From a virus: a stretch of DNA of 5,821 bases. The translations under genes were made by a program, and so were the position numbers. Position 1 is the first letter of the stretch, and each line of letters starts with the position of its first letter. Below the pieces are notes generated by a model, which made no database searches, had not been told where the DNA came from, and saw only the letters and a list, made by a program, of their open reading frames with translations. This document shows positions 1 to 5,821 of this stretch, piece after piece. The DNA is taken from IMG/VR virus record IMGVR_UViG_3300045988_013492, positions 1-5,821 of that record; one strand, written 5' to 3'.

Positions 1-95
1 ATTTTTTTTGTTACATACCCTGCAACATATCTATATGTTTCTGGAACTGCTTGCGCAATCTGTATTTGACCCATTCCCCACAGGTTTGCTAGCCA
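1..95. repeat. Terminal redundancy of a linearised circular genome. Positions 1-95 are identical to 5727-5821, giving a unit genome of 5,726 nt.
   Basis: Direct comparison: the string a + 8 t + gttacataccctgcaacatatctatatgtttctggaactgcttgcgcaatctgtatttgacccattccccacaggtttgctagcca occurs at 1-95 and again at 5727-5821, with offset 5726. Confidence 0.95.
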
Positions 96-4431: not shown

Positions 4432-4815
4432 TTATACCCCCTTTCTGTATCGTTCTTCACGCACATCAATGTGTACAAAGTTTGTGTATTTGATTACGCC
4501 GCCTTGTTCCATGATGCTATCTGCGTATTTTGCAACTTCTTGACTTGAGTGTCCTTTTACTACAATGTCTGCTGCCATTCCTTTGCAGTGCATTGAGTTT
4601 GGTGCTCCGTTTACTTTGCTGTTCCAGCTCGGTGTTCTGTATCCGCTGTTAATTTTTACCGGTGCTTTGAAGTGTTCTCTTATTGTTTCTAGGATTGTTA
4701 ATAGCTCTTTGCAGATTAGCAGTTTTTTGTTTCCGTCTTTGCATTGAAACTCTTTTGCTTTGAAGTGTTGGCTTAGTTTCCCGTAGTCTGCATTGATGTA
4801 TACGATATTTTTCAT
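4432..4815 (-). CDS. Peptidase M15 (Peptidase_M15_3-type zinc D,D- or L,D-peptidase), a putative endolysin of 127 aa starting at ATG 4815. The track's 156-aa model starting at 4902 is probably over-extended.
   Basis: SGYRTPSWNSKVNGAPNSMHCKGMAADI (SxHxxGxAxD, the zinc ligand motif) and the C-terminal FVHIDVRE are the PF08291 signatures. AAGGAG (4826..4821) lies 5 nt upstream of ATG 4815. A sigma70-like promoter sits inside the supposed N-terminal extension. Confidence 0.85.
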   Translation of the reverse strand: MKNIVYINADYGKLSQHFKAKEFQCKDGNKKLLICKELLTILETIREHFKAPVKINSGYRTPSWNSKVNGAPNSMHCKGMAADIVVKGHSSQEVAKYADSIMEQGGVIKYTNFVHIDVREERYRKGV

Positions 4816-4860
4816 GGCTGTCTCCTTTCTTTTGTATTGTGCTCTTTGTGCTTTGTCTAT

Positions 4861-4889
4861 ATTATAGGTTTTGTCAAGCCTTTTTTCAA
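4861..4889 (-). promoter_or_regulatory. Sigma70-type promoter for the peptidase / small-ORF transcript. -35 TTGAAA (4889..4884), 17-nt spacer, -10 TATAAT (4866..4861).
   Basis: I read the '-' strand directly: ATTGAAA AAAGGCTTGACAAAACC TATAAT. The -10 is a perfect consensus, the -35 matches 5 of 6, and the spacer is the optimal 17 nt. The predicted transcription start near 4854 gives a ~38-nt leader containing the AAGGAG. Confidence 0.5.
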
Positions 4890-4980
4890 TATTTGTAATC
4901 ATTTTGTAATATTATCTATGCAAACTGTCAAGGTTGCCGTAGGCAATTTTGACATTTTGCGTAGATGCCCGCGGCAGGCG

Positions 4981-5145
4981 TTTTCAACATTTTCCACATA
5001 GTTTTCAACATTTCAACATTGTTAAACTTTAACACAACAGAGTGTTTCAACATTTCAACAAGTTTTCAACAAATCTTTCAACATTCTTTTTGGTGCTTTT
5101 TCTTCGTACCAACGTAAAGAAAAAGCACTTTTCAACTTTTCCACA
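4981..5145 (+). repeat. Array of ten head-to-tail 9-mer repeats TTTTC(A/C)ACA. Two are exact DnaA-box consensus TTTTCCACA (4990-4998 and 5137-5145). Eight are TTTTCAACA or TTTCAACA variants (4981, 5002, 5011, 5045, 5053, 5063, 5076, 5129). They are arranged as doublets around a perfect dyad, TGTTAAA-C-TTTAACA (5020-5034).
   Basis: Seen in sequence. Copy spacing of 8-12 bp is roughly helical phasing. The region is non-coding on both strands. Confidence 0.8.
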
Positions 5146-5150
5146 TACTC

Positions 5151-5165
5151 TACTACTACTACTAC
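5151..5165. repeat. (TAC)5 trinucleotide microsatellite.
   Basis: tactactactactac, seen directly, in a non-coding region. Confidence 0.9.
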
Positions 5166-5249
5166 AACAAGTTATATAATAAAGGCGAAGTGTTATCCCT
5201 TGAAGCGAAGCGAATAGGGATTATAGGGTAGAACGTACTCTCCATTTTA

Positions 5250-5290
5250 CCGTGCGCGTGTACGTGCGTTTCGCGCGTGCGCGTGCGCGG
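5250..5290. repeat. GC-rich alternating pyrimidine/purine tract, (CG/TG)n, with three copies of GTGCGCG. It can form a 19-bp hairpin (5250-5268 with 5272-5290, TTT loop) made of 14 Watson-Crick pairs plus 5 G.T wobbles. It is a candidate Z-DNA former or origin / single-strand initiation hairpin.
   Basis: I mapped the pairs base by base. Every non-Watson-Crick position is a T opposite a G. Both arms are perfect Py-Pu alternations of 18 nt. The tract sits in an otherwise AT-rich genome. Confidence 0.6.
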
Positions 5291-5309
5291 TCTAACGCCT
5301 TAAGCACAC

Positions 5310-5356
5310 TCTTAAATCAATAAAAGCCCAGTGCCTTACTTGATAGGTACTGGGCT
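5310..5356 (-). terminator. Rho-independent terminator downstream of Rep. The stem is AGCCCAGT / ACTGGGCT (5356..5349 with 5332..5325) with a 16-nt loop. On the coding strand it is followed by TTTATTGATTT.
   Basis: A perfect 8-bp inverted repeat, seen directly. A T-rich run follows immediately on the '-' strand, 13 nt after the Rep stop at 5369. Confidence 0.5.
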
Positions 5357-5368
5357 AGGTGACACTGA

Positions 5369-5821
5369 TTACAAAATACCACGTTTTTTCGTTTGTTTTT
5401 TGGTTACACGCTCTTTGGTCTCTAAGATGGTTTTATAGTCTTGACCCTCTAACTGTAATCTTTTTTGCCCCATTGCGTTTTTCTGTCGGTTTCGCTTGAT
5501 TCTCCATAGTCTTTCCGGGTTTTCTGCTTCCATCTGTTTTTCATAGTACCTTGGAATTTGTGCTTGTTTCCCGTTGGTACACTGAATGTAGCCTTGCTTC
5601 CAGATTTCTGCCTTGTGCTCTTGATAGTAGTGATCTCCGAGACCTGGTTTTAAACTCATGCATGCAAAAGGTTTTGTTTGCCCTAGTTCATAGTATTGAT
5701 TTGCTTTCTTGCCGTCTATTTCGTACATTTTTTTTGTTACATACCCTGCAACATATCTATATGTTTCTGGAACTGCTTGCGCAATCTGTATTTGACCCAT
5801 TCCCCACAGGTTTGCTAGCCA
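5369..5821 (-). CDS. Replication initiation protein VP4, 3' portion (C-terminal 119 aa, plus 31 codons duplicated from positions 3-95). The stop is at 5371..5369.
   Basis: Track ORF 5369..5800. It extends upstream in frame to the window end and is continuous with complement(1..662) once the 5726-nt circularity is applied. The 5726 offset preserves the reading frame. The C-terminus is basic (KRNRQKNAMGQKR...KKQTKKRGIL). Confidence 0.9.
   Translation of the reverse strand, partial: WLANLWGMGQIQIAQAVPETYRYVAGYVTKKMYEIDGKKANQYYELGQTKPFACMSLKPGLGDHYYQEHKAEIWKQGYIQCTNGKQAQIPRYYEKQMEAENPERLWRIKRNRQKNAMGQKRLQLEGQDYKTILETKERVTKKQTKKRGIL

Follow-up and report, generated by a model that had tools for sequence, protein, structure and literature searches.

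A candidate chromosomal-type DnaA origin module in the intergenic region of gut gokushoviruses

Microviridae are textbook rolling-circle replicons that combine their own Rep with host elongation and priming factors, and phiX174 shares the nick site CTTG^ATA with plasmid pC194. Recruitment of host DnaA is known from other replicons: the P1 oriR, F, pSC101 and RK2 origins have DnaA boxes beside their own initiator, and oriC minichromosomes and plasmids (E. coli, Mollicutes) exist as laboratory constructs. DnaA-box clusters also titrate or regulate, as in datA, the B. subtilis DnaA-box clusters and dnaA autoregulation. On the viral single strand, an ABC-primosome signal requires a DnaA box within a duplex hairpin stem.

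The basal unwinding system (BUS) of Firmicute oriC (Richardson 2016/2019; Pelliciari 2021) comprises, in B. subtilis incC, DnaA-box#6/#7, DnaA-trios and an AT-rich region; published rules for it call for tandem DnaA boxes, a spacer length peaking at 10–13 and at least three DnaA-trios. Reversal of boxes 6 and 7, whose orientation is essential, kills the B. subtilis origin, and the strand opposite the trios forms the DnaD recognition element, a series of TnnT repeats. In C. difficile the trios read CACCTACTACTATTACTACTATGA. As the BUS reference set we used Table S1 of Pelliciari et al. 2021 (PMC8287927), which gives, in the order box / box / gap / trios, TTATCCACA / AATCCACA / GGCC / CTACTATTACTTCTACTA for B. 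subtilis, TTATCCACC / AATCCACA / GCAC / CTACTACTATTACTA (starting CTACTACTA) for S. aureus, TTATCAACA / AATCCACA / CTCC / CTACTACTATTACTACTT (starting CTACTACTA) for C. acetobutylicum and TTATTAACA / TATCAACA / AGCC / (CTA)6 for C. botulinum. In all four bacterial examples, 12 nt separate the upstream box from the first trio (PMC8287927).

Here we analyse the 5,821-nt IMG/VR record IMGVR_UViG_3300045988_013492 (the window, meaning this whole stretch), which consists of a complete gokushovirus genome, circular and 5726 nt long, and an assembly overlap of 95 nt. We consider it likely that positions 4981–5182 form a chromosomal-type BUS origin module of host-DnaA sites that copies or mimics the dnaA–dnaN origin of Oscillospiraceae/Ruminococcus. 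With the P1 oriR, F, pSC101 and RK2 origins the phage module would share the recruitment of host DnaA to a mobile replicon through boxes; those origins, however, have few boxes, which flank plasmid-Rep iterons, and lack chromosome-mimicking trios, whereas in the phage the whole module is of chromosomal type and the sole phage initiator is an HUH nickase. The phage resembles oriC minichromosomes in being a small circle with a chromosomal-type origin, whose replication could depend only on host DnaA, but it is a natural virus, for which autonomous replication is a hypothesis. The searchable literature holds no report of DnaA boxes in gokushoviruses or other Microviridae, in line with the statement of an earlier, sequence-only note on this DNA that none of the functions it considered for the array was known to be described for Gokushovirinae, and no description of phages with DnaA-trios or oriC-like modules. 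A chromosomal-type DnaA origin module in a single-stranded DNA (ssDNA) phage thus appears to be new.

Genome context, box array and conservation

All genes of the window lie on its minus strand, and the repeats therefore read TTTTCAACA on the strand antisense to the genes. VP1 occupies 3353–1620, VP5, VP3 and VP2 are likewise on the minus strand, the peptidase M15 gene runs from 4902/4815 to 4432, and VP4/Rep wraps around the window ends with its stop codon at 5369. Pfam matches comprise Phage_F, REP_ORF2-G2P, Chlamy_scaf, Peptidase_M15_3 and Phage_ORF5, and the phage encodes a complete HUH Rep. Relatives in GenBank are gut gokushoviruses of humans, pigs and monkeys with nucleotide identity of ~72%. 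The array is located in the intergenic region of 466–550 nt between the Rep stop codon and the late promoter, a sigma-70-type TTGAAA-17-TATAAT for the peptidase M15/late genes (4861–4889, minus strand) ~90 nt from box B1, and a strong ribosome-binding site, AAAGGAGA, stands upstream of the ATG at 4815. An Rfam scan of 4700–5500 returned only two sub-threshold chance matches.

The TTTC(A/C)AC core occurs in ten copies at 4982–5144, all on the plus strand. In the whole window there are 12 copies against 2.09 expected, a count reached in none of 200 shuffles, and the comparison with shuffled sequence that the earlier note had proposed thus excludes chance; the largest same-strand cluster per 165 nt was 3 among 2000 Markov-simulated genomes versus the 10 observed. 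That note had described ten copies of TTTTC(A/C)ACA in 165 nt. Ten core copies are present at the coordinates it gave, but the full 9-mer is exact in only five of them (4981, 4990, 5002, 5063 and 5137; 0.20 expected in the whole window). Two copies, 4990–4998 and 5137–5145, match the TTWTNCACA consensus exactly, as claimed; the others had been said to differ at one position, but this holds for three (C6->A), and the remaining five have two mismatches.

The ten copies form five doublets with start-to-start spacings of 8, 9, 11 and 12 nt, and they are direct repeats only, with no inverted partner. Boxes B1–B4 (4981–5018, plus strand; TTTTCAACA, TTTTCCACA, TTTTCAACA and (A)TTTCAACA) make up two doublets that are conserved in relatives. 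They are followed by a spacer between box groups containing the 15-nt palindrome TGTTAAAcTTTAACA (5020–5034), which only close relatives keep; distant relatives and host origins have another spacer of similar length in its place. Boxes B5–B8 (5044–5083, plus strand) read (G)TTTCAACA, (A)TTTCAACA, TTTTCAACA and (C)TTTCAACA, and the run AGTTTTCAACAAATCTTTCAACA in this region has near-identical counterparts in the oriC of Ruminococcus/Oscillospiraceae. A spacer of ~45 nt ahead of the last doublet holds a perfect hairpin (5093–5128) with 12-bp arms, GTGCTTTTTCTT and AAGAAAAAGCAC, and a 12-nt loop.

The doublets had been described as flanking a single perfect dyad. The doublets are real, but there are two dyads, at 5020–5034 and 5093–5128, and the second forms a perfect hairpin only in the sublineage of the window, other relatives having a weak dyad around ACG..CGT. 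The folding z-scores of 119 unique spacers had a median of −0.3 and lay below −1.5 in only 25%, so the perfect dyad is lineage-specific and we rejected the hairpin as a conserved structural element.

The array itself is kept. Segment 4981–5189 has matches in 46 GenBank phage records, essentially all IMG/VR relatives with a contig spanning the region carry the array, and in all it is retained in >130 non-redundant gut genomes, bearing out the conservation on which the earlier note had made its reading depend. The module was assembled independently in >130 circular genomes, and we rejected misassembly or chimerism as its source. A phage-derived pattern was found in at least 119 IMG/VR contigs, and among the 80 matches listed all but one were 4.0–6.2 kb long. 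In an alignment of 68 unique modules, the boxes approach 100% conservation and the spacers vary. The cultured gokushoviruses Chp2, phiMH2K and SpV4 yielded neither a box cluster nor a box-plus-trio module, which points to a clade-specific acquisition. Since these phages replicate without the module and the HUH Rep of the window's phage is complete, the module would be accessory to the basic cycle of the family.

Among 72 unique modules, each with 8–12 boxes in a single direction, the box profile is T.54 T.92 T.98 T1.0 C.94 [A.87/C.13/G0] A.99 C.99 A.82. Variation is confined to the degenerate positions of DnaA boxes, namely position 3 (T or A, with TTATCAAC in several relatives) and position 6 (A or C), and one distant relative has a perfect TTATCCACA. 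The profile bears on the proposal that the repeats are iterons for a host regulator, that is, an operator array bound by Spo0A (0A box TGTCGAA) or by an OmpR-type response regulator on direct repeats. TGTTGAA is one base off the 0A box, and phage phi29 carries Spo0A sites. The 72 modules, however, contain no 0A box and never a G at the critical position, which disposes of the Spo0A case; the 8-nt doublet period misfits response-regulator sites, and an operator would explain neither the trios nor the link to host origins described below. We regard such an operator as extremely improbable.

Unwinding layout and bacterial chromosome origins

Downstream of the last doublet lies a CTA/AT-rich feature that is absent from the earlier note. 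The last two boxes, B9 and B10 (5129–5145, plus strand), are a 9-mer and an abutting 8-mer, TTTTCAACT/TTTCCACA, and correspond to DnaA-box#6/#7 of the B. subtilis BUS. They are followed on the plus strand by the 4-nt gap TACT (5146–5149), the counterpart of the BUS 'gap/GC-cluster', although it is not GC-rich in the window, and by (CTA)5 (5150–5164), which gives five putative DnaA-trios (3'-GAT-5') on the complementary strand. The upstream box is thereby separated from the first trio by 12 nt. The AT-rich tract CAACAAGTTATATAATAA (5165–5182, plus strand) takes the position of the unwinding element; its part TTATATAATAA (5172–5182) is AT-rich beyond the trios, as in all relatives, a judgement made on composition.

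The phage module thus shares with Firmicute BUS elements the 9-mer plus 8-mer, the 4-nt gap, the 12-nt spacer, the orientation of the tandem boxes towards the trios, more than the minimum of three trios, the AT-rich tract and the upstream boxes. Its boxes match the host consensus, with TTTTCAACA as the predominant variant, and clostridial BUS elements likewise include boxes that have A at position 6. A box followed by (CTA)3 was found in none of 2000 simulated genomes.

These spacings are strictly maintained. No indel separates the box pair from the trios in 70 of the 72 unique modules, the two others (L065 and L068) having one extra CTA unit, and CTACTACTAC is invariant in the unique phage modules, the gap varying in sequence only. 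All relatives keep the first three CTA units unchanged; the fourth is variable, being CGA or CTC in many of them.

We scanned bacterial genomes, one per species for 185,579 species, with the 23-base phage-derived pattern TTCAACNTTTCMACNNNNNCTACTACTAC and obtained 60 loci, none of them phages. In 58 of the 60, dnaA and/or dnaN lies beside the match, which has the 17-mer class of the B9/B10 pair, in the same orientation (tblastn), and where the fetched stretch spans both genes the order is dnaA, boxes, trios, AT-rich tract, dnaN; Pfam confirmed DnaA and beta-clamp for two loci (L107 and L104). Matched taxa include Oscillospiraceae, Ruminococcus, Ruthenibacterium, 'Eubacteriales' MAGs, Lachnospiraceae, Selenomonas isolates and a few others. 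Ahead of the match, origins of Ruminococcus/Oscillospiraceae have 11–18 TTYCMAC-type boxes and only 0–3 of the strict, E. coli-type TTWTNCACA, arranged in doublets with spacers as in the phage (agt..., aatc..., attt...). These boxes concentrate in the dnaA–dnaN spacer, which holds 21 of 22 boxes within 8 kb in L106, 39 of 44 in L107 and 21 of 21 in L145.

The phage module is colinear with the origin of a Ruminococcus flavefaciens MAG (L107) over ~185 nt (136/191 identities, E=6e-19), an alignment that runs end to end and includes GCAC before B9. BLAST of the module against 72,556 plasmids gave chance matches of 35–40 nt only. Because pattern, box variant and colinearity are shared with bacterial origins, the repeats read as host-type DnaA boxes and the ~200-nt module, judged from its sequence, copies or closely mimics the unwinding half of an Oscillospiraceae chromosomal origin. 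The earlier suggestion that the repeats are DnaA boxes is thereby strongly supported, in the form of an Oscillospiraceae/Ruminococcus origin variant with DnaA-trios following at canonical spacing. Neither VP1 nor Rep adjoins the origin in any of the 60 bacterial loci, and on this ground we rejected homology-driven phage integration at the host origin.

Most phage boxes have A at position 6, an invariant C in the E. coli consensus, and predicted DnaA binding therefore rests on the analogy with host origins. In DnaA of hosts with TTTTCAACA-type boxes the recognition helix reads GGRDHSTIVY versus GGRDHTTVIH in B. subtilis DnaA (8BTG), whose DHTTVIH core is identical in Aquifex DnaA; the changed helix fits an altered preferred box. 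TTTTCAACA would be the working DnaA-box variant of Oscillospiraceae/Ruminococcus, alongside a changed recognition helix. The matches, mostly from metagenome-assembled genomes, suggest that the hosts of these phages are Oscillospiraceae/Ruminococcus bacteria, and the module would allow the hosts of a large uncultured clade, with at least 119 contigs in IMG/VR and dozens of genomes in GenBank, to be predicted from sequence as Oscillospiraceae/Ruminococcaceae.

Colinearity with host origins also suggests capture, and the module could be a functionless passenger, a host-origin fragment gained by recombination. Against this, functional positions are kept while spacers diverge across >130 non-redundant genomes whose Rep identity falls as low as 45%, every genome in which the region is covered has the module, and a 5.7-kb ssDNA genome is under strong size constraint. 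A functionless fragment is, in our view, scarcely credible.

Probable nick site, orientation and single-strand readings

A conserved hairpin lies directly after the Rep stop codon (5325–5356, plus strand), with loop TTACTTGAT followed by AGGTGA. It is kept even in distant gokushoviruses, and the Chlamydia phage Chp2 has a homologous hairpin with a 14-bp stem, loop TCTACTTGAT and then GGTGA. Its ACTTGAT motif (5337–5343) is antisense to the genes in 168 of 201 loci of the window's clade and on the coding strand in Chp2. Candidate nick sequences are TTACTTG^ATAGG in this hairpin loop (plus strand) and TATAACTTG^TTGTAG (minus strand). With its HUH Rep and a conserved hairpin with loop ACTTGAT, the phage resembles phiX174/pC194-type origins, and the element at 5325–5356 is the probable rolling-circle nick site. 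The element lies 180 nt from the array and is a separate feature, of which the array forms no part.

The location of the nick site bears on whether the repeats could be iterons for the phage Rep (VP4), a rolling-circle binding locus like the iterons of pMV158 or CRESS viruses, as the earlier note had offered. Direct repeats do lie near a candidate nick region, with AACTTG on the minus strand at 5167–5172, but 5325–5356 is the better nick-site candidate. Rep iterons would be specific to their own initiator and co-vary with it; instead, the motif stays constant while Rep identity spans 45–97%, and identical repeats and spacers fill bacterial dnaA–dnaN spacers, where the phage Rep is absent. Both observations contradict the claim and leave Rep iterons very improbable.

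Among 139 non-redundant genomes, the module is oriented as in the window in 131 and inverted as a whole block in 8, which marks it as a self-contained unit. Inversions occurred in at least three lineages (Rep identities ~85%, 52% and 46%), and one genome has the module between VP2 and VP4. The window has an alternating purine/pyrimidine GC tract, (GCGCGTGC)n (5252–5291), in the flanking context outside the origin-like core; in some relatives alternating GC tracts form inverted repeats that bracket the module at the inversion breakpoints.

Orientation and folding together bear on the possibility that the module is a complementary-strand origin on the packaged single strand, either through a DnaA ABC primosome, the function favoured in the earlier note, or through DnaD on the CTA/TnnT run recruiting the Firmicute primosome. 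Phages with ssDNA require a priming signal, the plus strand of (CTA)5 presents five TnnT-spaced thymines like the DnaD recognition element, and the CTA/TnnT strand is the strand of the ACTTGAT hairpin loop in 131 of 139 genomes; base composition did not indicate the packaged strand. In centroid structures of both single strands, however, no box is paired or in a hairpin stem, and the sole stable structure is the 5093–5128 hairpin (z-scores −1.6 and −2.4), which is not conserved across relatives. R6K ssiA, an ABC-primosome signal, likewise involves DnaA and a small replicon with a single-stranded stage, but it needs a DnaA box in an ssDNA hairpin stem, whereas the phage boxes are unpaired. A single-strand origin is orientation-specific, but the module is found both ways round (131 versus 8 genomes), with inversions in at least three lineages, and ten conserved double-strand recognition sites would be left without a role. 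Unpaired boxes, direct repeats only and the two orientations argue against both the ABC primosome and a strand-specific single-strand origin, and we hold a complementary-strand origin to be quite unlikely. By its sequence layout, the module instead has the architecture of a double-strand unwinding element.

Proposed function on the replicative form

Box array, trios and host-origin likeness suggest that the phage recruits the host initiator DnaA, and the module most likely acts on the double-stranded replicative form. By the known BUS mechanism, DnaA-ATP would occupy the boxes on this form and oligomerise from the B9/B10 pair onto the GAT-trio strand, and the oligomer would open the AT-rich tract, where the host loaders DnaD/DnaB/DnaI could then load the replicative helicase. 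The gain for the phage may be DnaA-dependent initiation, amplification or maintenance of the double-stranded form, a ready-melted region that assists its own Rep, or DnaA titration.

A narrower possibility, raised in the earlier note as a DnaA sink, is that the boxes bind DnaA but replication is not started there: the multicopy replicative form might titrate DnaA and disturb host initiation, or DnaA bound upstream of the late promoter might act as a switch coupling phage transcription to the replication state of the host. With ten boxes on a molecule present in many copies, ~90 nt upstream of a strong promoter, the array would suit either variant, and titrating or regulating DnaA-box clusters are known in bacteria. 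Titration or an operator would need boxes alone, however, leaving the three invariant trios, the 12-nt spacer, the box orientation and the colinearity with the unwinding half of host origins unexplained, and the position and orientation of the module relative to promoters vary. The phage module resembles datA-type titration loci as a DnaA-box cluster outside a chromosomal origin, but those loci lack both trios and an unwinding element at a set distance. A sink or switch without initiation therefore stands as an unlikely rival, and strict spacing and trio conservation favour real unwinding over titration alone.

If the module unwinds the replicative form as proposed, a conserved host-initiation module would add a second, DnaA-dependent replication layer to Microviridae. 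Such a layer is relevant to the long-term persistence reported for gokushoviruses in the human gut; no lysogeny mechanism is known in the gokushovirus clade of the window. More tentatively, and with some doubt on our part, the double-stranded form could be a natural DnaA-driven minichromosome that is inherited and replicates by the theta mode from a captured host origin. If so, it would provide an integrase-free carrier or lysogeny-like state in Oscillospiraceae and would be the first known virus with a chromosomal-type DnaA-box/DnaA-trio origin beside rolling-circle replication. A compact candidate origin of 200 nt might also yield replicating vectors for genetically intractable gut Clostridia.

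The module differs from chromosomal BUS elements in lacking a neighbouring dnaA or dnaN, in residing on an ssDNA phage of 5.7 kb, in being invertible relative to the genes and in carrying an invariant CTACAACAAGTTA after the trios. Origin function alone is insufficient to explain this invariance. Because CTACAACAAGTTA is invariant in the phages and nothing corresponds to it in host origins, an additional role specific to the phage is probable.

Genome ends and module orientation

The genome is circular: the exact 95-nt direct repeat at the ends of the window (1-95 = 5727-5821) is the assembly overlap, giving a true length of 5,726 nt, and the Rep gene (VP4) crosses the junction. In 8 of 139 non-redundant genomes (L026, L040, L056, L057, L084, L086, L087 and L224), the entire module of DnaA-box-like repeats, trios and AT-rich tract (~215-230 nt) is flipped relative to the genes, and these inversions span at least three lineages. 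Inversion breakpoints in L001/L040-type genomes fall within GC tracts of alternating purines and pyrimidines, arranged as inverted repeats. A Z-DNA-prone, GC-rich alternating purine/pyrimidine tract with GCGCGTGC repeats also adjoins the AT-rich end of the module in the window (5252-5291), and is kept in relatives. The relative L085 carries its module between VP2 and VP4 (L085 5004-5250).

One close relative, the oversized 8,781-nt contig L055 (IMGVR_UViG_3300045988_086966; Rep 85% identical), has unrelated sequence past the Rep hairpin, at the module's expected place (L055 3518-4700); either an insertion or a chimera could account for this.

Conserved elements flanking the boxes and trios

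Beyond the trios, the motif CTACAACAAGTTA(T/A)ATA (window 5162-5178) is invariant across all phage modules and has no counterpart in the host origins. With TATAAT on its + strand and AACTTG on its - strand, it may be a phage-specific site, either for Rep or a promoter.

Past the Rep stop lies a conserved hairpin (window 5325-5356 (+), also 5357-5365) with the loop TTACTTGAT, followed by AGGTGA; the loop motif is similar to the phiX174/pC194 nick site CTTG^ATA. The loop reads CAACTTGATA in L086, one of the genomes with a flipped module. Within the window's clade the hairpin-loop motif lies on the strand opposite to the coding strand of every gene at 168 of 201 loci, whereas the homologous hairpin of Chlamydia phage Chp2 (L330, 2904-2946) is on the coding strand. 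Either the non-coding strand is packaged in the window's clade, or the element acts differently there.

On the other side, a hairpin with a 13-bp stem (TGTCAAGGTTGCC-GTA-GGCAATTTTGACA, window 4926-4954) separates the array from the late promoter; it shows covariation in relatives (GGTCGCC/GGCGATT) and presents TTGACA on both strands. The promoter itself, TTGAAA-17-TATAAT (4889-4861), falls within the longer ORF call for peptidase M15 (ORF region 4815-4902), the start of which is probably the internal ATG at 4815, preceded by AAAGGAGA. Promoter and ribosome-binding-site style look Firmicute-like.

DnaA boxes in large viral contigs and probable bacterial hosts

Canonical TTATCCACA box clusters, ending ATCCACA-N4-CTACTACTA and accompanied by an AT-rich tract, were found in IMG/VR contigs of 10-160 kb (L265, L275, L277, L282, L287, L289, L296, L300, L303, L306 and L319), with no dnaA or dnaN match near the clusters. 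Judged from these sequences, DnaA origins resembling the Firmicute basal unwinding system may be common also in dsDNA phages or prophages.

Among the host loci, the C-termini of Oscillospiraceae/Ruminococcus DnaA proteins with TTTTCAACA-rich origins (L106, L107, L109, L114, L133 and L145) carry GGRDHSTIVY in the DNA-recognition helix. At loci with few TTTCAAC boxes, among them those of B. subtilis and Selenomonas, the helix instead reads GGRDHTTV(I/L)H. This difference may be what switches DnaA specificity to the C6->A box variant.
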